Positions 13,307 through 50,834 of a stretch of 64,000 nt of DNA are shown in pieces; positions within the stretch are counted from its first letter, which is position 1, and each line of letters starts with the position of its first letter. Made by a program: the position numbers and the translations under genes. Where the stretch lies: assembly GCA_934644775.1 (NCBI GenBank), contig CAKUDB010000011.1:1118-65117 (forward strand). The letters run 5' to 3'. The notes beneath the pieces are model-generated. The model was not told where the DNA came from and did no database searches. It was given only the letters and a program-made list of their open reading frames with translations. Origin of the DNA: an uncultured bacterium (GTDB lineage: Bacteria > Vulcanimicrobiota > Xenobia > Xenobiales > Xenobiaceae).

Positions 13307-13470
13307 CTATTCACCTTTACAGCAAGACTGAAAGCAGCGAACTAACTCCAGTCTCAGATTACAACAAACCGCCCTCCCCTTCGAGAATTTCAATTTTTCG
13401 CCTGCCTGGAAAACCTAAATGGGAAGATAGTTGCAGCAGGTTCGCCTATAAAGGAGACGAAAGGGGCAGC

Positions 13471-15415: not shown

Positions 15416-15589
15416 AGTAACTCCTCCAATAGTGTCAGTTAATGGCCCGCCAAGTTTCTATCGACAAGATCTTGGCCATTGTCCTTAATAATATACCCCC
15501 ACTCTACTTTTTTCTTTTCTGCTCTAACAAGGAGGGCCCCTTGTGTCTCGATCTCTAAAATATTCTCATTTAGCCAACGAAACCTGGCC

Positions 15590-15638
15590 ATTAAACCCAA
15601 AGAGAAGGGAGCCGCCTAAGAGCATTCCGGCGGCTCCC
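15590..15638 (-). terminator. rho-independent terminator downstream of 15697..16959
   Basis: Perfect 10-bp stem GGGAGCCGCC (15607-15616)/GGCGGCTCCC (15629-15638); TTCTCTTTGGG follows on minus strand. Confidence 0.6.
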
Positions 15639-15696
15639 TCCTTTTCCTACTATCTGCTTACGCTACCTCTCCACAATATAGTAGCATTTTTTCAGA

Positions 15697-16959
15697 TTAG
15701 CTAAAAAGATCGTAACCGAACTTGGCAATTTCAGCTACAGCAGCTACACCCAAAGCCACAGCAGCTACAGGAGCGCCTACACCAGTCATAGCCGCAACTC
15801 CGGCTACGGTAGTAGCCACACCTGATACTGTGCTTAATGAGCCCTTAACGATCTTATCAGTAGCTTCCTTATCGTTGCTCTTGTCGCCATCATTTTTGGC
15901 TTGTACGCCTTCAACAATATCTTTGACGCCTCCGGCAGTACCAAGAACGCCACCAGCTACGCCCAAGACGGGCACAACCTTGGAAGCAGTGCCGGCTACA
16001 CCACTAAGTTTACTAGCAGCCTTAGTGGCAGTAGAAACGGCGGCACCAGTTTCGGAAGCAGCAGCTACCTTAGTAGCAGCTTTAGTACCGATACTACCTA
16101 TGGTGTTAAGAGCAGTACCAGCAAAGTCGCTGGTGGTCTTAGCATAACTAAGGCCGTCTACTTTTTCGCCATTAAGCAAACTGGCTGTATCACTTACGAA
16201 ACCGATCACATCGGCGGCATCGCCAAACACGCCCATAGTTTTACCGCCAAAATCGCTGAACTTTTCAAGCTTCTTGGCCACATCGGTCGCTTTGTCGGCA
16301 TCTTTAAGAGCATCAGAAGTCTTGCCTGCAGCCTTCTGAACTTTGCCAAACTTATCACGAGCTCCCTCAGTTGTGTCGTAGATGTCACCAACAACTTCAC
16401 CGGCACTCTTGCCGTCTTTCTTGTCTTCAGCTTTTTCGCCTTCAGCCTTTTCGCCTTCGGCCTTTTTGCTACCGACAGCGTGGCTGCCAGTGTTAAGGGC
16501 ATTATTTAAGCTGACAAAATCTTTGGTGCTACCAACTTTGACGGCAGCCTGGTTAAACAAATCGTCAGATAGACTCTTGGAGACTTTTTCGTCGCCGCTG
16601 AAGGCACCCTTAGAAGCAGAATCGTTCTTTAATAAGGTGCTTACCTGATCGGAACCAGCTCCGCTGCGAACAGCCCCCTCAACTTTGGATTTAAGATTTA
16701 CATCGTCTTTAGCTTTGGCAGCTTCATTCTTTTGAGTCTGCTGAGCTTGCTTCTTCTCTTGAGCTTTCTTTTGCTCTTCGGCCTTCTTCTTAGCCTCGGC
16801 CCGTTTGCGTTCTTCGGCTTTTCTTCTTTCTTCGGCCTTTCTAGCTTCTTCAGCCCGACGCTGTTCTTCAGCCCGGCGCTGAGCTTCTATTTGCTGAGCA
16901 TACGCAGATGCCGAACTACTATTTACTCCACTTACCGCCATAATAATCACCCGTCCCAT
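15697..16959 (-). CDS. hypothetical protein with N-terminal highly charged KAEE/RRAEE coiled-coil repeats and Gly/Ala-rich glycine-zipper C-terminal helices
   Basis: AEEQRRAEEARKAEERRKAEERKRAEAKKKAEEQKK in the N-terminus; GVAGGVLGTAGGV...GVAAMTGVGAPVAAVALGVAAVAEIA in the C-terminus. Confidence 0.65.
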   Translation of the reverse strand: MGRVIIMAVSGVNSSSASAYAQQIEAQRRAEEQRRAEEARKAEERRKAEERKRAEAKKKAEEQKKAQEKKQAQQTQKNEAAKAKDDVNLKSKVEGAVRSGAGSDQVSTLLKNDSASKGAFSGDEKVSKSLSDDLFNQAAVKVGSTKDFVSLNNALNTGSHAVGSKKAEGEKAEGEKAEDKKDGKSAGEVVGDIYDTTEGARDKFGKVQKAAGKTSDALKDADKATDVAKKLEKFSDFGGKTMGVFGDAADVIGFVSDTASLLNGEKVDGLSYAKTTSDFAGTALNTIGSIGTKAATKVAAASETGAAVSTATKAASKLSGVAGTASKVVPVLGVAGGVLGTAGGVKDIVEGVQAKNDGDKSNDKEATDKIVKGSLSTVSGVATTVAGVAAMTGVGAPVAAVALGVAAVAEIAKFGYDLFS

Positions 16960-17073
16960 CTGGTCGTAATTGACTTATAAATACCGCAATCGAGCTTATT
17001 TGTCTAGATTTTAGGAGGCCTCTTTGGTCAAGTTAACATTTATTTTACACAAACAGAACTAGCCTTCTTTAGC

Positions 17074-17877
17074 TTAGGGCTCATCAGAGTGGACAGCCAT
17101 TATAGCTTTAACCCAATACTCATTGGCTTTGGTGGAAGCTTCTCGCGTATCTAAGAGCGCTTCGTAATTTTGACCGTTAAATTTTTGAGCTTGTTCTAAA
17201 GCTTCATGGAAAGAGCGACAACCTTCAGTTAAACATTCGCTAAGTACATCGTCGGCACTACATATGGCGTCAAAATAATTATCGGCGTCTAAAGTTCCAT
17301 TGACATACGCATTGATAGAAGGAACTAAAAGATCTTTATTGTCGATAACATCGGGATCTTGTTGATTTTTAGCATAAGTTAAAAGCCAGCTGAGCCCCTG
17401 ATAAGCTTGTTTTATAAGCATAAGGCCTACTCTTATGGGTTGCAAATTGCCAGGAGCATACATTTCCAACTGCATAACAGCCAACTTAAAAATGTAATAA
17501 GAGTCGTCGCGACGCATCTTTAAAGCTTTTACAGCCTTAGGATCCCCTGTTTCTTCTATAAAAGCACCTACTTGAGCATATAATTCTTCAAAATCTTCCA
17601 CTACCGGAGCCAGCGAAAACTTAAACTTGTCACTATCGACCGCTGTATCCACAGCTTTATACAAGCAAGCGCTTAGAGAACGCAGACAATCTTTAGGGTC
17701 GAGGTAAGCAAAATCGCCTCCCTCACTTCGGCGGGCCGCCGCTGGAAGCTCCCAATTACTCTGACTACCGAAAAAACCTTGTACGGCTAAAGGGCGTCCG
17801 GTGCCACATTCTTGACAGATAGATTCGCCAATACTATTGCGGGAACCACAGACAAAACAGATCCAATCGGTGCTCAT
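17074..17877 (-). CDS. hypothetical protein: N-terminal zinc ribbon (CxxC-x10-CxxC) plus helical domain paralogous to 14645..15415
   Basis: MSTDWICFVCGSRNSIGESICQECG at the N-terminus, then the shared paralog motifs. Confidence 0.65.
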   Translation of the reverse strand: MSTDWICFVCGSRNSIGESICQECGTGRPLAVQGFFGSQSNWELPAAARRSEGGDFAYLDPKDCLRSLSACLYKAVDTAVDSDKFKFSLAPVVEDFEELYAQVGAFIEETGDPKAVKALKMRRDDSYYIFKLAVMQLEMYAPGNLQPIRVGLMLIKQAYQGLSWLLTYAKNQQDPDVIDNKDLLVPSINAYVNGTLDADNYFDAICSADDVLSECLTEGCRSFHEALEQAQKFNGQNYEALLDTREASTKANEYWVKAIMAVHSDEP

Positions 17878-20770: not shown

Positions 20771-20819
20771 TTGCGCCCCCCCAAAAAAAAAGAACTTGCT
20801 CAAATGTATACACAATTGA
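20771..20819 (-). terminator. strong rho-independent terminator downstream of serC
   Basis: Perfect 11-bp stem GAACTTGCTCA (20782-20792)/TGAGCAAGTTC (20807-20817) with palindromic loop; T9 follows on minus strand (A9 at 20773-20781). Confidence 0.8.
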
Positions 20820-20883
20820 GCAAGTTCTTCCCGAATATTTGCCTATTCGTCAGTCTTACGCCTGCCAAATGGCAATCGATTTA

Positions 20884-21990
20884 CTAAGCGTTATGACGCT
20901 GGAAGTCGGCCATAAACTCTACCAAGCGCTCGACACCTTCGTAGGGGAAAGCGTTGTAAATAGAAGCGCGAATACCGCCAACAGATCTGTGACCCTTAAG
21001 GCCAATCATACCTACAGCTTCAGCTTCTTGGGCGAACTTCTTCTCCAAGTCTTCGTTGGGTAAGCGCCAAGTTACGTTCATTAAAGAGCGATCGGCTTTA
21101 GCAGCGTGAGGAGCATAGAAACCGTTGCTTTCGTCGAGAGCTTTGTAAAGGAGAGCAGCTTTCTTCTTGTTGAGCTCGTACATCTTGTCCAGACCGCCGA
21201 TCTCTTCTTCTAACCACTTCAAAACCAAACCAACCATATAAATGGCGAATACGGGGCAAGTATTGTAAAGGGAATGGTTCTCGACATGGGTCTTATAATT
21301 CATCATAATAGGACGCTTCTCGTCGGGAATAAGTCTCTTGTAGAAGTCGTCAGAAAGGATAGACAAAGTAACGCCGGCCGGGCCAACGTTCTTCTGAGCG
21401 CCAGCATAGATCAAACCGTACTTAGTGACGTCCATGGGACGACTCAAGAAGTCGGAAGAAGAGTCGCATACCATAGGTACACCGTAGGAAGCGGGCTCAC
21501 GATGGAACTCGATACCGTGAATAGTTTCGTTGGAAGTTACGTGGAAGTAGGAAGCTTCGGGACGAACTTTGTAATCGCCATCTTGAGGTAAGGTGCTAAA
21601 ATTGCTATCTTTACCAGACCAAACAATATTGACATTGCCAACACGTTTGGCCTCGGCAGCGGCCTTCTTAGACCAAGTCCCCTGTTCGAGGTAGTCGGCA
21701 CCGTTCTCCCCTAAGAAATTGACCGGGACCATACTGAACTGAGTGGTAGCGCCACCCTGCAAGAACATTACATAATAATTGTCAGGGATATTCAAAAGAC
21801 GGCGAAGTCTGGCTTCGGCAGTTTTGATAATACCGTCGATAACTTTACCGCGATGAGAGAGTTCCATAACGGAAGCGCCAGCACCGGGATAACATACTAA
21901 ATCGCGCTGAGCTTCTTTCAAAGCGGATAAAGGCAGAACGGCCGGACCAGCCGAGAAATTGAATACGCGCTTCTCACATTCACAAGTCAT
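20884..21990 (-). CDS. serC: phosphoserine aminotransferase
   Basis: FNFSAGPAVLPLSALKEAQRDL N-terminal motif and PLP-enzyme fold; ATG at 21990 (MTCECEKRVFNFSAGP) has a GGAGGG RBS 12 nt upstream; the longer track ORF starts at 22038. Confidence 0.88.
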   Translation of the reverse strand: MTCECEKRVFNFSAGPAVLPLSALKEAQRDLVCYPGAGASVMELSHRGKVIDGIIKTAEARLRRLLNIPDNYYVMFLQGGATTQFSMVPVNFLGENGADYLEQGTWSKKAAAEAKRVGNVNIVWSGKDSNFSTLPQDGDYKVRPEASYFHVTSNETIHGIEFHREPASYGVPMVCDSSSDFLSRPMDVTKYGLIYAGAQKNVGPAGVTLSILSDDFYKRLIPDEKRPIMMNYKTHVENHSLYNTCPVFAIYMVGLVLKWLEEEIGGLDKMYELNKKKAALLYKALDESNGFYAPHAAKADRSLMNVTWRLPNEDLEKKFAQEAEAVGMIGLKGHRSVGGIRASIYNAFPYEGVERLVEFMADFQRHNA

Positions 21991-22166
21991 TACTATATGA
22001 CCCTCCATATAGGTTATTCTGATATTCCCTAAGCCCAAAGGACTAAAGGATTACGACATTCGGGACAAAAAATCAAAATGCGTTTTCTCCAACGCAGGTT
22101 TTGGGCTTCGCCTGCTATTCTAAAAAAGCCTGCCTAAATAAAAGCTTAAATTACAGACAAAAAAGA

Positions 22167-23669
22167 TCAGTTGGCCGGTAGTGGAGCCGCCTCTTTAAGT
22201 TTAAGGGCTTCTTCTAAAATAAATTTAGCTACCGGAGCGGCTACTACCCCGCCACCACCACGATTTTCTACAATTACGGAGACGGCATAGCGCGGCTTGT
22301 CGGCCGGAGCATAACCGATAAACCAAGCATGGGTGGCACCGTGAGGATTTTCTGCCGAGCCAGTTTTGCCAGCTACAGCCACTCCGGGAATTTGGGCAGC
22401 CATACCAGTACCTTCTCGAACCACATTGGCCATAGATAAAGCCACTAAAGAAGCCGTCTCGGAAGAGATAATGCGCTCGGCCTTGCCTTCTGGACATTTC
22501 CAGACGGTAGATAAACCTTTAGCTGAAGGCCGAATTTGACCACGCAGCAGCCTCGGTTCAATATCGACTCCACCCCTAGCTATAACGGCGGCAACTCTGG
22601 CCATATGCAGGGGCGAAACCAAAGTATCGGCCTGACCGATAGCCGCTTCGGCTGGTGCCGAAAGGGTATCACTTTCCGGCAATCTGGCCCTAACAGCTCC
22701 GGGAACGAAAGCCATCTTTTGATCGAGCTTAAACTTCTTCATCCAGGCTCTAATTTTAGGCATTTGCATAGCCATTCCCAATCTTCCGAAAGCGGCATTA
22801 CAAGAGTAAGTTAGAGCTTCGTTTAAGGTGACGTCCCCATGATCGCCTAGACAACTGACAAAATAATTATCAGCCCAAAAGCCCTTATCACAATGGAAAG
22901 TATCGTTCCATCTAGCTAAACCTTCCTCTAAACAAGCAGCCATAATTAAAGGCTTAAAGACTGAACCGGGGGGATAATAGCCTTGTTTAGACCTATCTAA
23001 AAGACAGGCCGCTTCGTTATCACTGTTAATCCTTTGCCAATAGCCTTCAATACCTAAGTTGTTGGGATCGTAAGAAGGCAAGGAAACCATAGCTAAAAGA
23101 TCGCCGTTTTTAATATCGATAACGACTGCCGCTCCCCTATAACCGACCATATAATTAAAAATTTCACTTTGCAAAGTAGCGTCTAAAGTTGTTACAACAT
23201 CGTCGCCCTTTCTGTCAGACTTGTTCCATAAGCGAAAAGCTTCCCAAGGGGTACGGGGGACGCTAAAGCCGCGAATTTGTTCAGCTAAGTCGTCTTCTAA
23301 ACCGGCTCGGCTATATTCGGGACTGTTGTAGCCTATAATATTGGCGGCACACTCTCCTAAAGGATAAGTTCGAGGTACTTTCTGAGCTTCTTCTTGGCAA
23401 TTGTCCTTAGAAAAAGCCAAAGGAGCCAAGTGGCGATCTAAAATGCGCCCCATTAAATTCCAATTATCGTCATAAAGGGGATTATTTTTATGTTTACTTA
23501 AATTATCGCCATCAAAAATAGCGTATTTAGTCACATTTACTAGAGGCAAAAGTAATAATAAAGCAAACAAAAAGGCAGCGAAACGGACTCTCTTTTTAGT
23601 AGAGAAGATAGCTACTTTAGCCGATATGGTCTTATTCTTGCTAGGCATCGAGCTCTTTATCTCCCCCAT
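22167..23669 (-). CDS. peptidoglycan D,D-transpeptidase (class B PBP, PBP2/PbpA type)
   Basis: N-terminal TM; SVFK (SxxK), SCN, KTGS transpeptidase motifs; overlaps the upstream SEDS gene by 29 nt. Confidence 0.88.
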   Translation of the reverse strand: MGEIKSSMPSKNKTISAKVAIFSTKKRVRFAAFLFALLLLLPLVNVTKYAIFDGDNLSKHKNNPLYDDNWNLMGRILDRHLAPLAFSKDNCQEEAQKVPRTYPLGECAANIIGYNSPEYSRAGLEDDLAEQIRGFSVPRTPWEAFRLWNKSDRKGDDVVTTLDATLQSEIFNYMVGYRGAAVVIDIKNGDLLAMVSLPSYDPNNLGIEGYWQRINSDNEAACLLDRSKQGYYPPGSVFKPLIMAACLEEGLARWNDTFHCDKGFWADNYFVSCLGDHGDVTLNEALTYSCNAAFGRLGMAMQMPKIRAWMKKFKLDQKMAFVPGAVRARLPESDTLSAPAEAAIGQADTLVSPLHMARVAAVIARGGVDIEPRLLRGQIRPSAKGLSTVWKCPEGKAERIISSETASLVALSMANVVREGTGMAAQIPGVAVAGKTGSAENPHGATHAWFIGYAPADKPRYAVSVIVENRGGGGVVAAPVAKFILEEALKLKEAAPLPAN

Positions 23670-25032
23670 TTGCGAGTGTGTCGATCTTATCCCGCTCAGA
23701 TAAGCTTTCGCTACTTATACTCTTTTTATCTAACTCTGCAGCGTAAGCTTTGGCATTAGAAGCGTCAATAGCCCAAATTATTCCTAAAATAATAAAACTG
23801 GAAGCCAATGAACTGCCACCAGCAGAGACGAAAGGCAAAGTAATCCCAGTCATAGGAATAATTTTAGTATCACCAAGCATGATAATAGCGCTTTGCCAAG
23901 CGAATAAACTAGCTAAACCGGAGGCTAAAAGGACTCCGAATTGCTCTTGAGCTCTCATAGCTACAGCAAAACAGCGCTCTACTAAAATAATAATTCCCAG
24001 TATGAGAGCGGTACAACCAATCATTCCAAAGTCTTCAGTTATAGCCACAAAAGCAAAATCGTTACTTACTTCGGGAATAACTTCTGAATAGCCCATACCT
24101 AAGCCGGCACCGTCGAAGCCAGAATTATTTAAACAAAAGAGAGCTAAACACATTTGATAACCGTTATTGCCAATATCGGCAAAGGGATCGAGCCAATTAG
24201 CTACGCGCACTTGCACATGATCAAAAAATTTCCAACAAGCGTAAGCTCCCCCGGAAGATAATAAAGCTGTAAGAATAAGAATATCGGCTCGCCCAGTAGC
24301 GATAAAAAACATAGAAATAAAGATACCAAAGAGTAATAGGGCGGCACCTAAATCGCGCTGAGCTACCAATAATAATTCAGCTACAGCCATAGAAAGGCCC
24401 AAAATTAAAAGGGCTTTACGCGAGAGACGACTATCTTTGCCAAAGGTAATACCTAAACTCATCCAGGGACTAAATTGGCGCAAATAGGCGGCAAAAAATA
24501 TTATAAAACATATTTTGGTAAACTCGCCCGGTTGGAGGCTGAATCCACCGATATTGAACCATAGCCTGGCCCCATTGGCTGCCGCGCCAAAGATCATTAC
24601 TGCCAGTTGAGCAATTACTCCGCCAGTTAAAAATAAATATTTATACTCTTCTAAGACGCGGTAATTTCTGAGCAAAAAAACGCTCAGTAGCATAAGTACG
24701 AGGGCTACAGCTATGGAGATAGCCTGGCGCGGCCCCTGATTGGCATATAGAGAGTTACGGAAACCTAAACTATATATTTCCAACCAGCTCACACTACTTA
24801 AAAACAGAGCGCTAGGAATTAAAAAGTTGTCGCCCCTTTGGGGCCATAAAGCCAAAATGGCCCAGGCTATCCAACCGGAAATGGCTATAACGGCAGCGTA
24901 TTGGCAAGGCTTATAGCCGCAATCGACCCCGAAATTGGGGGCAATAAGAACCAACCAGTAACTGCCATAAGCTAAAATAGCAGTTACAATAAGCATAAGT
25001 AGGATCCCCCAACGACGTGAATTAGCATCCAT
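23641..25032 (-). CDS. SEDS family peptidoglycan glycosyltransferase (RodA/FtsW)
   Basis: 463 aa polytopic membrane protein with FtsW/RodA/SpoVE signature segments; immediately upstream of the class B PBP. Confidence 0.85.
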   Translation of the reverse strand: MDANSRRWGILLMLIVTAILAYGSYWLVLIAPNFGVDCGYKPCQYAAVIAISGWIAWAILALWPQRGDNFLIPSALFLSSVSWLEIYSLGFRNSLYANQGPRQAISIAVALVLMLLSVFLLRNYRVLEEYKYLFLTGGVIAQLAVMIFGAAANGARLWFNIGGFSLQPGEFTKICFIIFFAAYLRQFSPWMSLGITFGKDSRLSRKALLILGLSMAVAELLLVAQRDLGAALLLFGIFISMFFIATGRADILILTALLSSGGAYACWKFFDHVQVRVANWLDPFADIGNNGYQMCLALFCLNNSGFDGAGLGMGYSEVIPEVSNDFAFVAITEDFGMIGCTALILGIIILVERCFAVAMRAQEQFGVLLASGLASLFAWQSAIIMLGDTKIIPMTGITLPFVSAGGSSLASSFIILGIIWAIDASNAKAYAAELDKKSISSESLSERDKIDTLANGGDKELDA

Positions 25033-25043
25033 ACTTTTTTAAC

Positions 25044-25733
25044 CTAACTTTGCTTATAAACGAACTTACTATCATCTATAGAAAATTCGTCGCCATCTTT
25101 TAAGTATACCGGCGTAGTAAGTAATTCTCCGTTACAAAAAGTGCCGTTGGCACTACCTAAATCTTCCAGAACGACTCCGCTGGGATCGACTGATAGTTTG
25201 GCATGACGAGAGGAGACGAAGTTGCCAGTTAAACAAACGTCACACTCAGAAGAGCGTCCAAATATCAAAGTCTGTTCTACAGGTAAACTCTTCGCTGCCA
25301 AATAAGGACTATCGACTAGCAAATGGCTACCCGAAGGTGACGAAGCTGCCGCCGATTTTTTGACAGCCGCCAAGAATTGCTCACGCGAACTACCTACAGC
25401 TGGCATATCAGCCACAGTTGGAGCATAACATAAATCGAAATTAGTCTTCTCTGCCGAAGCCGACCTTACCGCCCCTAAGCTACCAGAAGCAGCTGAATGG
25501 AAGCTTTTCCTACTTTTGCCCTCGGATCTTTCTCCCTCTTGGGCAGAATCTGGTTCCGACTGTCCGGGACGAGAGAGACTATCTTTCTTTTCGGAAGGAG
25601 GCTCGGCTTTAGGCATTCCTTGATAGATAATCCGCAAAGAGACAACCACAAAAGCACAAATCAGCCCTAAAAGCGGAAATTTTAGAAAGTAGAGAATCCC
25701 CTCGGAAATGCCTTCTTTCAAACCGACCTCCAT
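25044..25733 (-). CDS. FHA domain-containing membrane protein (FhaB/FipA-like)
   Basis: N-terminal TM helix and Ser/Pro-rich linker, with a C-terminal FHA domain (LIFGRSSECDVCLTGNFVSSRHAKLSVDPSGVVLEDLGSANGTFCNG); position directly upstream of RodA-PBP mirrors the fhaB-rodA-pbpA arrangement. Confidence 0.75.
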   Translation of the reverse strand: MEVGLKEGISEGILYFLKFPLLGLICAFVVVSLRIIYQGMPKAEPPSEKKDSLSRPGQSEPDSAQEGERSEGKSRKSFHSAASGSLGAVRSASAEKTNFDLCYAPTVADMPAVGSSREQFLAAVKKSAAASSPSGSHLLVDSPYLAAKSLPVEQTLIFGRSSECDVCLTGNFVSSRHAKLSVDPSGVVLEDLGSANGTFCNGELLTTPVYLKDGDEFSIDDSKFVYKQS

Positions 25734-25793
25734 GCACTAATTTTAGAGTCAAGCTCAGCTTTAAACTGGCTCTACCCTATGGTATCGGCGGCC

Positions 25794-27077
25794 TTACTTA
25801 CTTAAATCGAAGCCATGACTGCGGAAGGTACTGGGATCGTGACAAACTTCTTTGGCAATATCTTTATCAATAACTTTATCTTTCAACAGCTTGAGTAAGG
25901 CAGAATCCATAGTTTGCATACCGATATCCTTACCCGTCTGAATATAGTTATTGATTTGAGAAGTTTTGCCCTCACGGATAATATTGGAGAAGCCGGCTTG
26001 GGAAATAAGAATCTCGTGCACCGCTACTCGACCGCCGCCAATCTTCTTAAGCAAAAGCTGAGCCACCACCGCTTTAATAGATTCGCTGAGCATAGCGCGA
26101 ATAGTATCTTGCTGTTTGGCAGGGAAGACGTCGATAATACGATCTATAGTTTTGGCGGCAGAATTGGTATGCAAAGTACCAAAAACTAAAGCGCCCGTTT
26201 CGGCCGCCTTAATGGCATTGTAAATAGTATCTAAATCGCGCATTTCACCCACCAAAACAATATCGGGATCTTCACGCAAAGAAGCTCTCAGAGCTTCGGC
26301 GAAGGTATTGGCGTGAGTACCCACTTCGCGATGATCGATAATACATTTTTGGTTTTTATGGGTAAACTCAACGGGATCTTCAATAGTAATTATGTGGGCA
26401 GCGCGATTTTTATTCACATAATCGAGCATAGCCGCCATAGTGGTAGATTTACCCGAACCGGTAGGGCCAGTTACTAAGACGATCCCTTTCTTGAACATAG
26501 CGATCTTTTTGAGCACTTCGGGAAGGTGCATCTCGTCAATAGTAGGTATGCGGCTGGGGATTTCCCGGAAAACGGCCGCCAAACCGCACTTTTGTTTAAA
26601 AAAGTTGCCACGGAAACGAGCCAGTCCGGGAATTTCGTAGGCAAAATCGAGATTGCCACATTTTTCAAAAGCTTCCCAGCGCTCGGCACTAACTAAAGGC
26701 AGTAAAAGCTCCCTGGCCTTTTCGTTAGTCAGAACTGGGCAGGTAGAGCGATGTAAATCGCCGCTAATACGGAACATAGGCACTTCGCCTACGGACAAAT
26801 GCAAGTCGGAGCCTTTGTGGGCTACCAAAATGCGCAATAAGTCGTCCTGATTATAATCGTCGGCCACTTCGATTAAAGGCAGCTCCTCTACTGGGGGCTC
26901 TTCTTGAGCAACTTCTGCTACCGAAGGGGCAGAAGCTTCATAATCGGCACTAGTGGCAACCCCTACATTAGAATCGGCTACAGCAGAAGTGACAACTTTT
27001 TCTTCCACTGTCGGTGCAGGCTCTTCGCGAGAGGCGGAAGAGGAAAATCTCTTGGTCAAGCTGGAAAAAAATGCCAT
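25794..27077 (-). CDS. PilT/PilU-family ATPase with ~80-aa acidic N-terminal extension
   Basis: GPTGSGKSTT, IEDPVEF, DIVLVGEMRDLDT, TLHTNSAAKT are all canonical. Confidence 0.85.
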   Translation of the reverse strand: MAFFSSLTKRFSSSASREEPAPTVEEKVVTSAVADSNVGVATSADYEASAPSVAEVAQEEPPVEELPLIEVADDYNQDDLLRILVAHKGSDLHLSVGEVPMFRISGDLHRSTCPVLTNEKARELLLPLVSAERWEAFEKCGNLDFAYEIPGLARFRGNFFKQKCGLAAVFREIPSRIPTIDEMHLPEVLKKIAMFKKGIVLVTGPTGSGKSTTMAAMLDYVNKNRAAHIITIEDPVEFTHKNQKCIIDHREVGTHANTFAEALRASLREDPDIVLVGEMRDLDTIYNAIKAAETGALVFGTLHTNSAAKTIDRIIDVFPAKQQDTIRAMLSESIKAVVAQLLLKKIGGGRVAVHEILISQAGFSNIIREGKTSQINNYIQTGKDIGMQTMDSALLKLLKDKVIDKDIAKEVCHDPSTFRSHGFDLSK

Positions 27078-27095
27078 AATTTTCTACCCCTTAAA

Positions 27096-28187
27096 TTAGT
27101 CGGCCATATAGGCGTTGGAAGAAAGGTGACGGTAAGGCTCGCGATTTACTGAGCAAGCTTCGGCTTCTTCTTTAGTAATGAGGCCGCGCTTAAAGAGTTC
27201 TAAAACGGAATTATCCATAACGCACATACCGTCTTTCTTGCCCGTTTGCATGGACATAGTGATTTGATAAGTTTTGCCATCGCGAATTAAATTGGAGATA
27301 CTGCCGTTATTGACTAAAATTTCTACAGCGGCCACCCGTCCAGAGCCATCGGCCTTGGGAATGAGCTGTTGAGCAATTACACCGCGCAGCGATTCTGAAA
27401 GCATAGTGCGTATTTGGGCTTGCTGATCGATAGGAAAAGCGTCGATCAAGCGATCTACAGCTTTGGCAGCAGAGTTGGTATGCAGAGTGCCTAACACCAA
27501 GTGGCCAGTCTCGGCAGCTGTAATAGCCAAAGATATAGTTTCTAAATCGCGCAATTCACCGACAAAAATAATATCGGGGTCTTCGCGCAAAGCCCCCTTC
27601 AGAGCCAAAGCGAAACTTTCTACATCGCGACCGACCTGGCGCTGGTTAATTAAAGCTTTTTTATTTTTGAATATATACTCAATAGGATCTTCTACAGTAA
27701 TTATATGGACCGGAGAGCGGGAGTTGATAATATCTAAAAGTGCAGCCACGGTAGCCGTTTTACCACAGCCGGCCTGGCCAGTACAAAGGATCAAACCTTG
27801 GTGGTATCGGGTCAGTTTATCTAAACTAGCAGGCAAGCCCAATTCTTCCAAAGTGGGAATCTTTGAAGGTATCAACCTAAAAACGATATTCAAGCCATTT
27901 TTTTGCTCGTAGACATTGCCGCGCAATCTCCAAGGGCCGCCCTCTTCGACTGTACCCAGTTCCAGGGCAAAATCTAAGTTTTTATCTTGCTTAAGTTTTT
28001 CGAGTTGTTCAACACTAAAGAGCGATTTGGCAACTTCGACTACAAAATCGTTAGGCAAAACATAATCGTCGGTCATACGTTGCAAAGAGCCGTAAATGCG
28101 AGCGACCGGAGCTTCGCCAGAGACTAAATATAGGTCTGAAGCGTGACAATCGACCATCATTTGCAAACATTTATTCAAATAGGACAT
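27096..28187 (-). CDS. PilT/PilU-family ATPase
   Basis: Walker A GQAGCGKT, VEDPIEY, IIFVGELRDLET, TLHTNSAAKA. ATG at 28187 (GAGAGGT RBS 10 nt upstream) places ASDLYL 16 residues from the N-terminus, as in PilT. The track ORF extends to TTG 28256. Confidence 0.85.
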   Translation of the reverse strand: MSYLNKCLQMMVDCHASDLYLVSGEAPVARIYGSLQRMTDDYVLPNDFVVEVAKSLFSVEQLEKLKQDKNLDFALELGTVEEGGPWRLRGNVYEQKNGLNIVFRLIPSKIPTLEELGLPASLDKLTRYHQGLILCTGQAGCGKTATVAALLDIINSRSPVHIITVEDPIEYIFKNKKALINQRQVGRDVESFALALKGALREDPDIIFVGELRDLETISLAITAAETGHLVLGTLHTNSAAKAVDRLIDAFPIDQQAQIRTMLSESLRGVIAQQLIPKADGSGRVAAVEILVNNGSISNLIRDGKTYQITMSMQTGKKDGMCVMDNSVLELFKRGLITKEEAEACSVNREPYRHLSSNAYMAD

Positions 28188-28463
28188 AGACAAACGACCT
28201 CTCTGAGAATGGATTATAGCTCTTTTATATCTGACTATGTAGAGCAACTGCCCCAACTAGCTCCGACCAATTGCTTAGGGCAACAATTTCGCACTTGATC
28301 GCGCCTCTTTTTAGCACTGCCACGAAAACTCTGCCGCCTTTCGCCGCTGGGATAGTGTCTCCTTTAGAAGGCCAGTGGCAGGTAATTTAGGCTTTTTTGT
28401 GAACAAGAGGGGCCTACTGATAGCCCAAGAAGTCATCCCGAAAGAAAAGAAAATTACCATATT

Positions 28464-29267
28464 ATGATCCATTTTACTCCTCCGCCCGATATTCATATCG
28501 GCGGCCCTTTTATCGTCAATATTCACAGTTTGGCTTTTTGCCTGGGAGCTATGGCAGCTTACTTCCTTACTATCAAAAGGCTGCCGGAAAAATATCGCGA
28601 CCATATCGACAATTTGGCTATGTGGATGACCTTAGCGGGAATTTTAGGGGCCCGTCTCCTTTTTGCTTTGGTAAATTACCGCCAAATGCACAGTCTGGGC
28701 CAAGTTTTTGCTTTTTGGGAAGGCGGCTTAATATCTTACGGCGGCTTTTTAGGGGCGATATTGGCTTGGATAGGCTACATTAAAGCCAAGAAACTGCCCC
28801 TGGAAGTAATGTGTCAAGCTATGGGCCCAGCAGCTCTCTTGGGCTGGGGCCTGGGTCGCTTTGGCTGTTTCTTGGCCTGGAATGGCGAAATTGGCCTACC
28901 TACTTCCCTGCCTTGGGGTATGATCGTGGGCAACGACGTGGCCCGCCATCCTACTATGCTCTATCTGGCCGTAGCCCACTGCACTTGCGCTCTACTGATT
29001 ATGAAGTATTCTTCCCAGCTACGTATCAATGCCGCCGCTTTGAGTTTAGCCGCCTTCGGCCTGGTGCGAGCTATCTTAGATTATTGGCGCGACTACGATC
29101 CCTCTTGGCTCTATTATGGCTCGCTAGCAATTTCTATCCTCTGGCTAGTTTTGGGCCTGTGGCTTAGCAAAGCATTGCCTTTCCCGCAGGAAGAGCCAAC
29201 TGAAAGCCAAGAGGAAGTTGCCCAGCCTCAAGGGCCAACCCAAGAATCTCAAGGGGCTGTCAAGTAA
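28464..29267 (+). CDS. lgt: prolipoprotein diacylglyceryl transferase
   Basis: Polytopic; GGLISYGGFLGAI and the Lgt signature GRFGCFLAWNGEIG. Confidence 0.85.
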   Translation: MIHFTPPPDIHIGGPFIVNIHSLAFCLGAMAAYFLTIKRLPEKYRDHIDNLAMWMTLAGILGARLLFALVNYRQMHSLGQVFAFWEGGLISYGGFLGAILAWIGYIKAKKLPLEVMCQAMGPAALLGWGLGRFGCFLAWNGEIGLPTSLPWGMIVGNDVARHPTMLYLAVAHCTCALLIMKYSSQLRINAAALSLAAFGLVRAILDYWRDYDPSWLYYGSLAISILWLVLGLWLSKALPFPQEEPTESQEEVAQPQGPTQESQGAVK

Positions 29268-33042: not shown

Positions 33043-34674
33043 ATGGCTTGGAGTTCTGGTCTGCAACTTAGAGTAGTTGAAGGCAATGACGAAGGTAGGG
33101 TTGTCCTGCTCAACTCGCCGGAAATAACCTTAGGAAGAGCAGTTGAAACTAGCGAAAGTTCTCCCGGCTGGGTTCTCTTTTCTGAACCTACCGTGTCCAG
33201 AATCCATGCCTTGTTGCAATGGGATGACGAAAGGCAGTGTTATGTTTTACAGCACCGCTCTCGCACCAATCCTACTTTAGTTCGTGACGTACCCGTCGAC
33301 GGCTATCCGCTCCATCTCAACGAAAAAGTCAATTTAGGATTGTTGGGCTTTATTCTAGAGCCGGCCGAAACGCGCACCGGCAAGTTGGGCGACGCTGTCA
33401 AGACTCCACAAAGTCAGGGTGTATCCCCAGGAGTGTTTGACGCCCTAAACGACTACGCTTCCAAGAGCAACAACCGGCAAGACAGAGAAAATATGGCTGG
33501 TATGGCCGGTTTAATAGATGGCGGTGGGCAAGACGAAGAAAAATTCGTTATGAGCGTAATCCAGGGGCCTGATAAAGGGACGAATTATCCTCTCCGCGAG
33601 CCCGTATTAGTTATAGGTCGCCTCCAAGGGCCCGCCGATCCGCGAGCCAGCGCCGGCGTATTGTTGCACGATACCTCCGTTCCCAGCGAGCAAGCGCTCC
33701 TAGTTTGGCAAGATCGGGCCGCCACCTATGGCATATTGCAATCAGATAGCAGCAGCCAGGCCACCCGTATTAGACGCATGTCCAACGGTATGCCTCGCGA
33801 AATTATCGTGCGCAGCGATATTCCCACCGTACTTAACGAGCGGGACGTTATTATGATCGGTCGCACGGCTATGGTACTTTCCAGCAACCAAAGGTCGAGT
33901 AGCGGCTACGATTTAGGCCAAACTAGTATGCACATGGCTGGCCAACAGCCCCAACAACCTTTCCACGAATTTGATGTAGACGATAACCAGCTCCATCGTT
34001 CTCCTTTGCGCAGTTGGCGAGACAATAATCCTCCTCGTCAACCTTACTCTGAGCCAGCCCCCCAGTATCAACAGCCGCCTCAACAGCCTTATCAGCCACG
34101 CCCAGAGTACGGAGGCTATCCTGCAAGCCAAGAAGCCCCAGCTTATGGTGATTACCAGCCTCGACAGCGCCGCGAAGCTTATCCTCCTGATCCTAACAGC
34201 TACCCAGGACAGCCTCCTTATGGACAGCCCGAGCCCGCCCCCTACCGCGAGCAGCCGCCTTACAACTATGAGCCAGCCCCGGACTATGCTCCTGCGCCAG
34301 CCCCCACTCCGGCCAATGCTCCTCGCCCGGCGGGTGCCCCCCATCCAGCAGGAACTCCACGTCCAGCTGGTGCTCCCCGTCCAGCTGGAGCTCCTCGTCC
34401 AGCAGGCGCTCCACGCCCAGCAGGCGCTCCTCGTCCTGCCGGGGCTCCTCGTCCTGCCGGGGCTCCACGCCCTGCAGGCGCTCCTCGTCCTGCCGGGGCT
34501 CCACGCCCTACAGGCGCTCCACGCCCAGCAGGCGCTCCCCGTCCAGCAGGCGCTCCCCGTCCAGCAGGCGCTCCCCGTCCAGCCGGAGCTCCACGCCCTG
34601 CCGGAGCTCCTCGCCCAGCGGGTGCTCCCCGTCCAGCTGCTCCCTCAGAGACAGAAGGCGATAGTTATCGATAA
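33043..34674 (+). CDS. FHA domain protein (two FHA-like domains) with C-terminal Pro-rich (APRPAG)n tandem repeat tail
   Basis: First FHA: ITLGRAVE...VSRIHALLQWDDERQCYVLQHRSRTNPTLV. Second: LVIGRLQG...; about 18 consecutive APRPAG hexads; GAGAGG RBS. Confidence 0.75.
   Translation: MAWSSGLQLRVVEGNDEGRVVLLNSPEITLGRAVETSESSPGWVLFSEPTVSRIHALLQWDDERQCYVLQHRSRTNPTLVRDVPVDGYPLHLNEKVNLGLLGFILEPAETRTGKLGDAVKTPQSQGVSPGVFDALNDYASKSNNRQDRENMAGMAGLIDGGGQDEEKFVMSVIQGPDKGTNYPLREPVLVIGRLQGPADPRASAGVLLHDTSVPSEQALLVWQDRAATYGILQSDSSSQATRIRRMSNGMPREIIVRSDIPTVLNERDVIMIGRTAMVLSSNQRSSSGYDLGQTSMHMAGQQPQQPFHEFDVDDNQLHRSPLRSWRDNNPPRQPYSEPAPQYQQPPQQPYQPRPEYGGYPASQEAPAYGDYQPRQRREAYPPDPNSYPGQPPYGQPEPAPYREQPPYNYEPAPDYAPAPAPTPANAPRPAGAPHPAGTPRPAGAPRPAGAPRPAGAPRPAGAPRPAGAPRPAGAPRPAGAPRPAGAPRPTGAPRPAGAPRPAGAPRPAGAPRPAGAPRPAGAPRPAGAPRPAAPSETEGDSYR
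34318..34640 (+). repeat. 18-nt tandem DNA repeat (~18 copies) encoding (APRPAG)n
   Basis: Repeated gctcctcgtcctgccggg / gctccacgcccagcaggc units, lying within the coding region. Confidence 0.9.
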
Positions 34675-34763
34675 ATACTACCCGCCGACCGAAGGGCCAC
34701 TCCAAGCCTAATAAAGGCTCGGTCGGCTGTGACAGTTTTTTATTTTGCATAGGTATAGCAACG

Positions 34764-37286
34764 GTGGAAAATCAGAATAGCCCTCAGCAACAAGCAGCCG
34801 ATCTTCGCATGATGTTGGATAGCGAGCCTCCTAAGCAGCGCTCTTCGCGTCGCAGCTCCAGAGGGACGACCCTAAGTGATATAGACACTATGTCCTACGA
34901 CGAACTAGTGGCTTATATCTCTGATTCTAATTCTGATTTTGCCGACGAAGCTACCGGATTAGACGGGCTGCGCGAAGAAGAAGAGCGGGCCAAGCGAGCT
35001 GTGCCCTACTCTTTTGCCTCTTTAGGTAAGAAGCAACCCGCCGATACTTCGGCCTCCAACTCGCATTTGACCGACTTATCTAGTTTGCGAACTATCACTC
35101 CCGATCCTCAAGCCTATTCCCAGCCCGAATATTATCAGCCAAACGACCCTCAAGACTCAGCTCAGGGAGCAAGTGGCCTTACAAATGGCCTTCTGGAAAG
35201 TCCTAGCGACAACACCGACTTTTCTGTAGCTTCAAACAACAATATCTTCGACGCTAAAGACTACAATAGCCAAGATTTTAAGCGCGACAGCTTGGTTCGC
35301 GAAGGCTTAGGCCACGACGGTTTCAATCATGAAAGCTACAACGGTGAAAGCTTAGGTCATGACGGTTTTGACCACGATGGTTTCGACCATGAAGGCTTCG
35401 ATCACGAAGGCTTCGACCGCGACGGCTACGACCGCGAAGGCTTCGATCACGAAGGCTTCGACCGCGAAGGCTTCGATCACGAAGGCTTCGACCGCGAAGG
35501 CTTCGATCACGAAGGCTTCGACCGCGAAGGCTTCGATCACGAAGGCTTCGACCGCGACGGCTACGATCACGACAACTACGACCGCGAAGGCTACGACTGG
35601 GAAGGCTTTGATAGCGAAGGCTACGATCGCGACGGTTTTGATCGCGACAACTACGACCGCGAGGGTTACGACTGGGAAGGTTTCAACCAATATGGCCTCA
35701 ATCGTCAAGGCTTCGACCGTGACGGCTTCGATGAGGAAGGCTTTGATAGCGAAGGCTACGATCACGACGGTTTTGACCGCGACAACTACGACCGCGAGGG
35801 TTACGACTGGGAAGGTTTCAACCAATATGGCCTAGATCGTCAGGGCTTCAACCGTCACGGCTACGATGCGGAAGGTTACGATCGTGAAGGCTTCAATAGC
35901 GAAGGCTTTGATCGTGACGGCTACGACCGCGAAGGTTTCGACCAGTATAATTATGACCGCGAAGGTTACGATTGGGAGGGATACGATTGCGAAGGCTACG
36001 ATTACGGCGGTTTTGATCGAGACGGCTACGATAAAGAAGGTTATACCCGTCAAGATTGGGAGGCTGCGGGCTACAAATTTGGGCCACGCGGCGAGTTTAT
36101 TTTATCGGAAAGCGAGACCTCCGAGACAGAAGCCGCAGCCAATGAGCCTATTGGCCAAGAAGAGGCAGCCCCTCAATTAAATAAAGATTCAACTACTAGG
36201 CCAGAGCCAAGTCCCGAAGTTCAAGCCGAGTCAGCCCCAACTCCCGTTGAAGATGACGAAAAGGTTGAAGATATTGAAGATGATAGAGTCGTTGGAGCTG
36301 AGCCAGACCACGAAGCCAACGAAGAGGATCTATCCGACCAAGAGCTTCCCGAGTATAATTTTGCCGCTGCTCCTCCGGCCAGGGCCAATGAAGTTAAGCC
36401 CCAGGCTGAGCCAGAATCGCTTAGTTTTAGTCAGGAAGGAGCCTACAGAGCCGAACTGCCGGTAGCAGCCGAAGCCCCTCACGAAGCCCCTCAACAAGTG
36501 AACGCCGAGCCTCAAGTTCAGACCTCTTCGGCAAGTGAGTTGCCACCAGAAGCCTCTATAGCTTCAGCTCAGCCTAGGGCAGACGTGCCTTTATTTGAGC
36601 CGGAGGGCAAGTTAGGCAATATGACCAGCCCTTGGAGCTACGAATGCGACTACGCTATCGATTATATTAGTGGCAGTCGTCGCGGCCAAAGGATCGCTTT
36701 ACTAGCTTCTGAGCTTGGCGATACGCGGTCTTTTACTGTTGGCTCAAGTGGCGAGCGCGTCAACGATATTGAAGTAGATGAACCTACTATAGCTAACGAT
36801 CAAGCCTTACTGCGTTACAATAACGGTCGCTTTACTTTGATCAATTTCCAAGAAGATATTAAGATCAATAGGCGGATTATCACTTGCGGCGAGCAAGTCA
36901 ATTTAATGACCGGTGATGAGATTAGCTTAGGAAACACCACTTTAGTTTTTAGTGAGCGTTGTATCAGTGAAGCTTTGGCCGAATATTCTATCGATGTGGT
37001 GGAAGGTGCCCCAACCGATCTAGGCAAGTCTTTCCCTCTAACTAAGCAGCGCTCTTCTATAGGGCGGGATCGCAATTCGGATATTCCCCTTACCGATCAA
37101 GAGATCAGCCGCCAACATTGTACCCTTACTTTCCGGGCCGGTAAGTTCTTCTTGCAACATCGCTCCGATACCAACCCAACCTTTATTAACGGCGTTTCTG
37201 TTCCCGTCGGCGGTGAGCGCCAGATAACTACCGAGGATAAGATTCAAATTTCCAGCCGTACCGTTTTGCAACTGGTAAAACATTGA
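34764..37286 (+). CDS. large FHA domain protein: disordered N-terminus, ~45 tandem acidic/aromatic pentad repeats (E-G-F/Y-D-x), C-terminal tandem FHA domains
   Basis: GTG start; runs of EGFDHEGFDREGFDHEGFDRDGYD...EGYDWEGF; C-terminal FHA: SIGRDRNSDIPLTDQEISRQHCTLTFRAGKFFLQHRSDTNPTFINGVSV. Confidence 0.75.
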   Translation: MENQNSPQQQAADLRMMLDSEPPKQRSSRRSSRGTTLSDIDTMSYDELVAYISDSNSDFADEATGLDGLREEEERAKRAVPYSFASLGKKQPADTSASNSHLTDLSSLRTITPDPQAYSQPEYYQPNDPQDSAQGASGLTNGLLESPSDNTDFSVASNNNIFDAKDYNSQDFKRDSLVREGLGHDGFNHESYNGESLGHDGFDHDGFDHEGFDHEGFDRDGYDREGFDHEGFDREGFDHEGFDREGFDHEGFDREGFDHEGFDRDGYDHDNYDREGYDWEGFDSEGYDRDGFDRDNYDREGYDWEGFNQYGLNRQGFDRDGFDEEGFDSEGYDHDGFDRDNYDREGYDWEGFNQYGLDRQGFNRHGYDAEGYDREGFNSEGFDRDGYDREGFDQYNYDREGYDWEGYDCEGYDYGGFDRDGYDKEGYTRQDWEAAGYKFGPRGEFILSESETSETEAAANEPIGQEEAAPQLNKDSTTRPEPSPEVQAESAPTPVEDDEKVEDIEDDRVVGAEPDHEANEEDLSDQELPEYNFAAAPPARANEVKPQAEPESLSFSQEGAYRAELPVAAEAPHEAPQQVNAEPQVQTSSASELPPEASIASAQPRADVPLFEPEGKLGNMTSPWSYECDYAIDYISGSRRGQRIALLASELGDTRSFTVGSSGERVNDIEVDEPTIANDQALLRYNNGRFTLINFQEDIKINRRIITCGEQVNLMTGDEISLGNTTLVFSERCISEALAEYSIDVVEGAPTDLGKSFPLTKQRSSIGRDRNSDIPLTDQEISRQHCTLTFRAGKFFLQHRSDTNPTFINGVSVPVGGERQITTEDKIQISSRTVLQLVKH
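35293..36060 (+). repeat. 15/30-nt tandem DNA repeat block encoding the pentad (GFDxE/GYDxE) repeats
   Basis: Many near-identical gaaggcttcgatcacgaaggcttcgaccgc units; the antisense ORFs in the track here are repeat artefacts. Confidence 0.9.
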
Positions 37287-48240: not shown

Positions 48241-48386
48241 AATATGCCAACCTCCTAAACTTAACGCAGCTCCCCAAAAATAATCAGATCTAAAGAGAGG
48301 CCTGACAGCTCCATCTATTGACGATCCAGTCAGACCTCTCACCAATTGCTGAAGAAGAGCTTTTTCCCTTCTCTAGCCAAAGGAAA

Positions 48387-50720: not shown

Positions 50721-50834
50721 ATTAAAAACTAAACTCCTCAAACCATGTTGTTCGTCGCCGTCAGCGAAAAAAAATTGCCGCCAAACTTCTACAACCTCTC
50801 GGCAATTCCTTTGCTAAGTGGGCAGTCCAGCTAG

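Follow-up and report, generated by a model that had tools for sequence, protein, structure and literature searches.

The window considered here, i.e., the whole 64-kb stretch of DNA from an uncultured human-gut bacterium of the class Xenobia (phylum Vulcanimicrobiota or Eremiobacterota), carries on its minus strand a block of five genes in which a tandem pair of genes for PilT-family ATPases directly precedes a wall-synthesis module, made up of genes for a membrane-anchored FHA protein of the FhaB type, a SEDS-family protein and a class B penicillin-binding protein (bPBP). The block and its immediate flanks comprise the following features, with lengths in amino acids (aa) and with the longest open reading frame (ORF) given where it differs from the called gene:

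27096-28187, minus strand: pilT-1, 363 aa from the gene-caller start, the longest ORF extending to 28256
25794-27077, minus strand: pilT-2, 427 aa, a PilT-family ATPase with an N-terminal extension
25044-25733, minus strand: fha, the gene for the FhaB-type protein with a transmembrane (TM) segment and an FHA domain, a 229-aa ORF, 225 aa from the gene-caller start
23641-25032, minus strand: SEDS gene (RodA/FtsW family), 463 aa, PF01098
22167-23669, minus strand: class B PBP gene, 493 aa from the gene-caller start at 23648, overlapping the end of the SEDS gene
20884-22038 as longest ORF, 20884-21990 as called, minus strand: serC, phosphoserine aminotransferase, NF003764 at 484 bits
about 20783-20832, minus strand: intrinsic terminator after serC, a perfect 14-bp core stem followed by T9
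28188-28463, no strand assigned: divergent lgt/pilT-1 intergenic region, the presumed site of the promoter of the block and of its ribosome-binding site, GAGAGG
28464-29267, plus strand: lgt, prolipoprotein diacylglyceryl transferase, PF01790 at 122 bits, the neighbour on the pilT-1 side

The five-gene order on the minus strand had been put forward in a first-pass annotation made from the letters and ORFs alone, and it is borne out by the Pfam and NCBIfam identities of the products, their co-orientation, their spacing and the lack of an internal terminator. The ORF list of the window holds six co-oriented minus-strand ORFs between 28.2 and 20.8 kb. Measured on the longest ORFs, the gaps from pilT-1 to the bPBP gene are 18, 60 and 11 nucleotides (nt), and the last two genes overlap by 29 nt; gene-caller starts, taken from identical metagenome contigs, change these values to 18, 72 and 11 nt and an overlap of 8 nt. 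The gap between the bPBP gene and serC is 128 nt by ORFs and 176 nt by called genes. Folding and a consensus scan found no terminator-like fold in the pilT-2/fha gap, and no terminator was found from pilT-1 to the bPBP gene, the strong one lying only after serC. There the hairpin has a dG of -27 kcal/mol (z -6.3), with none of 200 shuffles folding as well; the earlier annotation was right to call it strong, and its placement at 20771-20819 was a few bases off. A weak hairpin with a T-tract also lies at 22079-22096, ahead of serC, between the bPBP gene and serC. Consensus scans gave 21 promoter-like sites (13.9±3.6 in shuffled sequence) and 16 terminator-like sites (12.2±4.2), i.e., numbers near expectation, and no convincing site of either kind inside the block; Rfam and tRNA scans returned only two tRNAs, both far from it.

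When the lgt/pilT-1 region is aligned with those of two close relatives, some stretches prove to be conserved, as does a GAGAGGTCGTTTG element ahead of the start codon; its TATAAT-like hexamer does not, so that the promoter of the block is not defined. The start contexts of pilT-1 (28185-28205, minus strand) and fha (25715-25740, minus strand) share a near-identical element, GAGGTCG(G)TTTG. At fha, gene callers use a TTG that lies four codons downstream of the ATG and is preceded by GGAGG, and the shared element favours this TTG start and the 225-aa product that they report; because of the later start, an exact look-up of the 229-aa ORF gave no match. Judged from the spacing and the lack of internal terminators, the five genes are most likely co-transcribed as one operon. 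The serC gene is part of the conserved block but probably not functionally related to it.

Distribution of the junction and of its two modules

Identical copies of PilT-2 are encoded on at least 23 metagenome contigs, of which the displayed ones are from human-gut samples (Hadza and others). The nearest named proteins are those of Candidatus Bruticola (Vulcanimicrobiota, class Xenobia), and UBA4705, at first labelled UBP9, falls within the closest species-level genome. In the literature (PMC6664022), UBP9 is the class of Eremiobacterota described as basal and anaerobic. At least seven species-level Xenobia-like lineages keep the order lgt, pilT-1, pilT-2, fha, SEDS, bPBP, serC, the carriers being the window species (L001-4), L013-L015, which are close to the window, L005/L006/L016, L007 and L008/L009. 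These genomes span a GC content of 43-69% (57% in L005/L006/L016, 68-69% in L007 and L008/L009), and the minimum identity across the junction lineages is 63% for PilT-2, 47% for SEDS, 44% for the bPBP and about 40% for the FHA protein. Genes beyond lgt and serC vary between these lineages. The lgt gene stands beside the block in L005-L009 and L014-L016, mostly divergent from it, and is co-directional with infA between in L005, L006 and L016, while in every Xenobia-like locus the bPBP gene is followed by serC. The pilT-2/fha gap measures 60-76 nt in most lineages, as against 0-37 nt or overlaps within each module; in L005, L006 and L016 fha begins immediately after the pilT-2 stop, with 0 nt between them, and in L007 and L008 the fha, SEDS and bPBP genes overlap by 4-11 nt. 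No terminator follows pilT-2 in any lineage checked. The spacing in the junction lineages is thus of the kind predicted for an operon.

The wider occurrence of the wall-synthesis half was surveyed by a scan of one genome per species with the SEDS alignment as query, the ORFs of 80 loci then being searched with the window proteins. A pilT gene directly upstream of the SEDS-bPBP module was found only in four Xenobia-like loci among the 80 and in none of the other 76. Nearly all of these 76 SEDS-bPBP loci, from Actinomycetota, Clostridia, Limnocylindria and other Vulcanimicrobiota, have a detectable fha upstream, which points to the fhaB-SEDS-bPBP module as an older unit shared with Actinomycetota, Clostridia and Chloroflexota. 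What occupies the place of the pilT pair differs: L018 (Vulcanimicrobiota) has FhaA-like and FhaB-like genes upstream, L024 (Limnocylindria) has an FhaA-like gene in the upstream slot, and in L017, the nearest relative lacking the junction, this slot holds an L,D-transpeptidase gene.

The pilT-1/pilT-2 pair likewise forms a compact unit across the phylum, with gaps of 3-20 nt and with the same N-terminal extension on PilT-2. Six such pairs were found outside Xenobia (L010, L011, L012, L178, L179 and L108), and their neighbours are unrelated between genomes. In L010 (9356-12180; Vulcanimicrobiota metagenome-assembled genome (MAG) GCA_054941295.1), the pair is followed by a co-oriented response regulator gene and a gene for a 796-aa Tubulin_2 (PF13809) protein, and in L011 (9134-11763; Eremiobacterota MAG GCA_026129085.1) by genes for an AMIN-domain N-acetylmuramoyl-L-alanine amidase and BacA (undecaprenyl-diphosphatase). 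The amidase and BacA genes make L011 another cell-wall neighbourhood for the pilT pair. L012 has unrelated genes beside the pair and both pilC and pilB 6-8 kb away; L178 has suf genes and a peroxidase, L179 glycosyltransferases and L108 convergent genes.

For background only, further PilT loci were taken from a metagenome scan with an alignment of the PilT-2 N-domain, the matches listed being mostly generic PilTs of 45-55% identity. Among these matches, none of 80 loci has fha, SEDS or bPBP genes within 8 kb (33 of the 80 have at least 3 kb downstream), and 43 of the 80 have a second PilT-family gene beside the first. The human-gut contigs L093-L107, on which a PilT gene with an ORF of ~450 aa is 54-55% identical to PilT-2, were dropped as relatives; their GC of 61-64% indicates a different gut organism.

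Among the loci compared, the junction is confined to Xenobia-like genomes and hence looks like the product of one event in the Xenobia stem, kept ever since. As lgt and serC also belong to the conserved block, conserved adjacency alone is weak evidence of functional coupling between the two modules.

The ATPases and the wall-synthesis proteins

Both ATPases of the block exceed the curated cutoff of the NCBIfam family TIGR01420 (319.1 bits), PilT-1 with 426.8 and PilT-2 with 447.9 bits. PilT-1 carries a Walker A motif GQAGCGKT, an Asp box ITVEDPIEY, a Walker B motif DPDIIFVGELRD and a His box TGHLVLGTLHT, and it scores 310 bits against Aquifex PilT 2gsz versus 241 against PilU 9n32. PilT-2 is the member of the pair nearest to Pseudomonas PilT, scoring 380 bits against P. 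aeruginosa PilT 3jvu versus 252 against PilU 9n32. In an alignment with P. aeruginosa PilT, the Walker A motif, the Asp box, the Walker B motif with its catalytic Glu and the second His of the His box are present in PilT-1, PilT-2 and a further paralog, PilT-3. The earlier view that both ATPases of the block keep all these boxes intact stands for PilT-1 and for the Walker and Asp boxes of PilT-2, but the first His of the PilT-2 His box is Ala, at a position that is variable among orthologs, the second His being invariant. Orthologs of PilT-1 throughout the phylum retain all catalytic motifs in alignment, and those of PilT-2 retain the motifs too. A C-terminal helix of the AIRNLIRE type is retained in PilT-1 (SISNLIRDGK), PilT-2 (GFSNIIREGK) and PilT-3 (AVRNLIREGK), the corresponding stretch of PilT-4 reading KLKELLRENK. 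All four score best against solved PilT structures and lower against PilU, PilB, GspE and DotB, which places them, as far as bit scores tell, nearer to PilT retraction ATPases than to any of these. PilT-1 and PilT-2, encoded in tandem, are thus most likely both active as retraction ATPases of type IVa pili, and their sequences give no sign of a departure from the canonical PilT role.

The PilT core of PilT-2 spans residues 78-415, from which it follows that the N-terminal extension of ~75 residues is real:

26847-27077, minus strand: N-terminal extension of PilT-2, residues 1-77

It consists of an invariant M-x-F-F, then basic residues and then a variable, acidic, Pro-rich linker, 40-90 residues across the phylum; the consensus of the M-x-F-F and basic part is MSFFSKFTKKLT. 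F3 and F4 are invariant in 16 PilT-2 orthologs, including those not adjoining fha, and the motif may be a docking peptide for the membrane or for a partner. Two more specific roles were considered. FHA domains require phosphothreonine (pThr), and a role of the N-terminus as an FHA ligand was ruled out, the candidate Thr not being conserved (orthologs have T, S, I or A there). The N-terminus is a weak candidate for an amphipathic helix that targets the membrane: its hydrophobic moment exceeds that of shuffled sequences only moderately, and in the window protein the excess is not significant.

The remaining two paralogs form a second tandem pair on the same strand:

12185-13306, minus strand: pilT-3, TIGR01420 at 486.7 bits, the most canonical PilT paralog
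11016-12083, minus strand: pilT-4, TIGR01420 at 280.1 bits, below the 319.1 cutoff, in tandem with pilT-3 and followed by serS

The count of four PilT paralogs in 17 kb (11016-12083, 12185-13306, 25794-27077 and 27096-28187) in the first-pass annotation holds, with the qualification that PilT-4 falls below the family cutoff and has lost motifs. PilT-3 scores 426 bits against Geobacter PilT 6ojx versus 295 against PilU 9n32, is 81-89% identical in distant Xenobia-like loci, and is likely to be the principal retraction ATPase. PilT-4 (235 bits to the best PilT versus 193 to PilU 9n32) has GADVVVVSNLES as its Walker B motif and SGTLVIASSVAS as its His box, and is probably catalytically inactive, since the catalytic Glu and the Arg of Walker B and both His-box histidines are lost. 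The pilT-3/pilT-4 pair is always followed by serS (in the window, L007-L009, L013-L015 and L017), and always divergent from it is a gene for a conserved protein of ~350-450 aa with no function assigned (13273-14616, plus strand, in the window). This protein is 32-36% identical in distant loci and has no Pfam or PDB match, the 447-aa window copy having been searched against PDB. In L017, the unit of pilT-3, pilT-4, serS and the divergent gene lies 2.2 kb downstream of the bPBP gene.

In the wall-synthesis half, the FhaB-type protein has one N-terminal TM helix (residues ~11-40, about 25626-25700), a low-complexity linker of ~110 aa and a C-terminal FHA domain (residues 157-219, about 25077-25265; PF00498 at 67 bits) in which the pThr-binding GR, SxxH and NG residues are present. 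Its best-scoring NCBIfam family is NF049868 FhaB_Rv0019c, at 76.1 bits against a cutoff of 125. The architecture and the position directly upstream of the SEDS-bPBP pair are those of Mycolicibacterium L053, Clostridia L021 and Vulcanimicrobiota L018b, whose N-terminal TM helices the window protein's helix resembles. The total length of the FhaB-type protein is 178-229 aa in lineages with the pilT junction versus 147-160 aa in those that lack it, the linkers being longer. The SEDS protein matches PF01098 FTSW_RODA_SPOVE at 220 bits (cutoff 26.4) and stays below the equivalog cutoffs for RodA (TIGR02210, 184.1 versus 336.7) and FtsW (TIGR02614, 208.5 versus 337.5); its best matches outside the phylum are RodA proteins of actinobacterial fha-rodA-pbpA clusters. 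The bPBP matches the transpeptidase domain PF00905 at 185 bits, the PbpA dimerisation domain PF21922 at 24.4, just under the cutoff of 27, and the equivalog pbp2_mrdA at 255.7 bits, under the cutoff of 455, and is a PbpA/PBP2-like class B transpeptidase encoded in a pair with the SEDS protein. With the equivalog scores of SEDS, FhaB and PBP2 all below cutoff, the label 'elongasome' rests on synteny with actinobacterial rodA-pbpA.

Neither the 64-kb window nor the 10 kb beyond its right end has a gene for PilB, PilC or PilMNO or a prepilin-type ORF, as judged by Pfam scans of ORFs of at least 150 aa, by precomputed Pfam labels for the last five ORFs (53.8-63.6 kb) and, for smaller ORFs, by a prepilin-motif scan that detected positive controls in L012 and L176. 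The first-pass annotation had reported this absence for the 64 kb, correctly, and the added 10 kb hold only housekeeping genes, e.g., rpsB, tsf, pyrH, frr and uppS. It had also taken the missing genes to suggest that at least some of the ATPases serve something other than pilus retraction, possibly a process coupled to wall synthesis by FHA/phospho-signalling. This reading is not supported, in view of the PilT-like scores, the unrelated genes beside the pair elsewhere, the pilB and pilC genes near the pair in L012, a piliated cultured member of the phylum and the general dispersal of pil genes. The genes of type IVa pili are typically scattered over several loci, as seen for pilT-pilU in Pseudomonas, and for this reason even a piliated bacterium would be expected to lack them over about 74 kb; the absence says little. 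The one member of the phylum in culture, Vulcanimicrobium alpinum, produces type IV pili, twitches and shows pilus-dependent phototactic motility (PMC9758169). It does not have the junction. Literature on Xenobia, UBP9 and Bruticola yielded nothing on pili or cell shape.

The pilus cluster of L012 (10722-17317) encodes a PilC of a rare, divergent lineage, at most 31% identical to ordinary PilC and with about a dozen relatives among 5.8 billion proteins, together with a 292-aa protein that has two hydrophobic segments and an FHA domain. A PilC of the same lineage lies beside N_methyl pilin genes in L176.

Explanations of the gene order and further features of the window

These patterns are, in our judgement, probably best accounted for by a lineage-specific, operon-like fusion of two older modules, with the five genes read together and the ATPases still retracting pili. 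Such a fusion would date from the ancestor of the class Xenobia/UBP9 (Vulcanimicrobiota), when the pilT pair landed where relatives have an FhaA-type or L,D-transpeptidase gene. The membrane-anchored FHA protein of the second module would read Ser/Thr-kinase phosphorylation and modulate the synthase pair of the RodA/PbpA type, and transcription of the five genes would start at a promoter between lgt and pilT-1 and might continue into serC. The retraction motors would thereby be co-expressed with a peptidoglycan synthase module responsive to Ser/Thr phosphorylation; the proteins need not touch, and presumably there is no direct physical coupling between the ATPases and the wall synthase.

Several observations weigh against this account. 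The role of the ATPases in pili is an assumption for the Xenobia class, as pilB, pilC, pilin and pilMNO genes are lacking from the Xenobia-like sequence covered (the window with its 10-kb extension and, for seven lineages, the ~17-21 kb surrounding the block), and two large protein searches, seeded with the PilC of L012 or a profile of its lineage, returned no match labelled Xenobia or Bruticola; this last negative carries little weight, because the L012 lineage is rare and divergent and the search word index limits sensitivity. An internal promoter would fit into the 60-76 nt that precede fha in most lineages, so that the wall genes may be expressed independently. The retention of the fusion over deep divergence could, in turn, reflect selection for coupling. 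Further, the PilT-3/PilT-4 pair lies 2-9 kb from the wall module in every sufficiently long Xenobia-like locus (L007-L009, L017 and the window), and this clustering of pilT genes near the wall module exceeds what a single chance landing explains.

The first alternative is functional coupling, in which the PilT pair still works on type IV pili and is recruited or regulated via the SEDS-bPBP complex or the membrane-anchored FhaB-type protein. Pilus machines might, for instance, be assembled at the same pole or growth zone as new peptidoglycan, or the Ser/Thr-kinase signal that controls wall growth might also gate retraction. We regard such coupling as unlikely. It would fit a junction retained over deep divergence with spacing of the translational-coupling type, the presence of four PilT genes 2-17 kb from the wall module in Xenobia-like loci, including L017 with no pilT-1/pilT-2 junction, and the longer FhaB linkers of the junction lineages. 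The pair also stands beside envelope or cytoskeleton genes in L011 (AMIN-amidase, BacA) and L010 (response regulator, tubulin-like gene), the L012 pilus cluster contains a TM-FHA protein, and the pilT-ftsA-ftsZ operon of Clostridium perfringens provides a precedent. Set against these, the junction is of single origin, with no independent recurrence in the 80 PilT loci (among the matches listed) or the 76 SEDS loci; serC and lgt are in the conserved block as well, so that the retention of synteny is not specific to the five genes; and three other contexts of the pilT pair are clearly unrelated to the envelope. Moreover, the PilT-2 extension is older than the junction and lacks a conserved Thr for the FHA domain, and Pfam scans of ORFs of at least 150 aa, together with the precomputed labels, found no gene for a Ser/Thr kinase or a PP2C phosphatase in the window.

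Neutral adjacency, with fhaB-SEDS-bPBP having its own promoter in or near the 60-76-nt gap and slow rearrangement keeping the pilT pair upstream outside any common operon, is quite improbable. Its strength lies in the autonomy of both modules everywhere else, in the equally good conservation of the unrelated neighbours lgt and serC, and in the coincidence of the wider gap with the exact module boundary in most lineages, the spacing inside the modules being 0-37 nt or overlapping. Yet in L005, L006 and L016 the fha start follows the pilT-2 stop at once, leaving no intergenic room for a promoter, and with no terminator after pilT-2 in the lineages checked, transcripts from the pilT promoter should run on into fha whether or not there is an internal promoter.

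A bolder proposal, that PilT hexamers are physically coupled to the SEDS-bPBP synthase via the FhaB-type adaptor and position, gate or energise wall synthesis, is very improbable; in a milder form retraction and wall growth would be mechanically coordinated at one site, and in the extreme form there would be no pilus and four PilTs serving the envelope. An outright repurposing, in which Xenobia have no type IV pilus and PilT-1 and PilT-2 (perhaps also PilT-3 and PilT-4) power or regulate another membrane process, possibly that of SEDS-bPBP via FhaB, is extremely improbable: it could draw on the lack of pilus assembly and pilin genes in about 74 kb of the source contig and in the flanks of seven lineages, on the two large protein searches with no Xenobia-labelled PilC and on the position of the pair in the upstream slot of FhaA in relatives, but the PilT-2 score of 380 bits over the full core, the 426 bits of PilT-3 and the retained AIRNLIRE-type helix and catalytic boxes are expected of a canonical role, the PilC searches were seeded from a rare, divergent lineage with limited sensitivity, pilus genes are normally dispersed, the cultured phylum member is piliated, and no PilT-family ATPase is known to act on a peptidoglycan synthase, a literature search for one having found nothing.

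Apart from the pilT genes and the wall module, the window contains other genes that can be mentioned here. Genes for two large FHA proteins, whose FHA domain is N-terminal in the first (543 aa) and C-terminal in the second (840 aa), adjoin each other and are directly followed by a gene for a GH3 (NagZ-like) glycosidase, this group spanning 33043-37286 and 37314-38840 (both plus strand); the segment at 34-36 kb has an unusually high GC content, 57% versus about 45%. At 14645-17877 (minus strand) lie genes for three lineage-specific proteins with no family match. Two of them, of 256 and 267 aa, are weakly related (pairwise E = 1e-6), the 267-aa one beginning with a zinc-ribbon-like CxxC...CxxC, and between them is a 420-aa Lys/Ala-rich protein with a Gly/Ala-rich hydrophobic C-terminus. 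At 47572-50741 (minus strand) is the gene for a 784-aa protein with a weak Roadblock/LC7 (MglB-like) domain, adjoining that for a SPOR-domain protein; these two are candidate polarity and septal-peptidoglycan factors.

Comparison with known systems

The fusion is best read as analogous to pilT-ftsA-ftsZ of C. perfringens, whose co-transcription was shown experimentally and whose link was left unexplained by its authors (PMC6958937). In both, pilT lies directly upstream of and co-oriented with essential envelope or division genes, and this in one clade only; in C. perfringens, the other pilus genes are elsewhere in the genome (PMC6958937). The differences are that the partners there are the divisome cytoskeleton proteins FtsA and FtsZ, that there is a single pilT, that the phylum is unrelated, and that co-transcription is experimental in that case and predicted in the present one. 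The block would thus be a second independent case, after Clostridium, of a retraction motor placed ahead of essential envelope genes and kept by a whole clade. If the link is functional, the dynamics of a surface appendage would be tied to wall growth under Ser/Thr-kinase control, in an uncultured lineage of the gut that branches deeply, and the block would offer a genetic handle on the question left by the Clostridium work. If it is only co-expression or neutral synteny, the result amounts to a modest annotation note on two ancient modules fused once, and a caution against inferring function from pil genes missing in a 64-kb window. Importance would come only with a whole-genome absence of pilus machinery or a demonstrated interaction with the wall synthase.

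A parallel can also be drawn with the pilT-pilU (PilT paralog) tandems of Proteobacteria and of many other bacteria, which likewise place two adjacent PilT-family genes apart from the pilus assembly genes. Unlike in these, both members of the window pair are nearer to PilT than to PilU, the more PilT-like gene comes second rather than first, PilT-2 has a phylum-specific N-terminal extension and, in Xenobia, wall-synthesis genes follow the pair.

The wall-synthesis half has its closest counterpart in the actinobacterial cluster fhaA-fhaB-pstP-rodA-pbpA-pknA-pknB (Rv0020c-Rv0014c of M. tuberculosis), which has the same order of FhaB-type, SEDS and class B PBP genes with overlapping or tight spacing. 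This cluster and the shorter fha-SEDS-bPBP ones of Clostridia and Chloroflexota give the best matches of the window SEDS protein outside the phylum (33-43% identity), and the actinobacterial FhaB and the window FHA protein share the architecture of TM helix, linker and FHA domain. The equivalence suggested at the outset, with ATPases in the upstream positions, agrees with this: fhaB-rodA-pbpA are matched, and the PilT pair sits in the slot of an FhaA-type gene, to judge from L018 and L024. In contrast to the actinobacterial cluster, the window has no FhaA, PstP (PP2C) or PknA/PknB among its ORFs of at least 150 aa (the last five by precomputed labels), it has two PilT ATPase genes upstream, and its FhaB, RodA and PBP2 equivalog scores are below cutoff. 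The wall-synthesis half of the block can be seen as a trimmed version of the actinobacterial cluster. Literature searches found no description of the gene order pilT-pilT-fhaB-SEDS-bPBP; every component belongs to a known family, and it is this order that is new.

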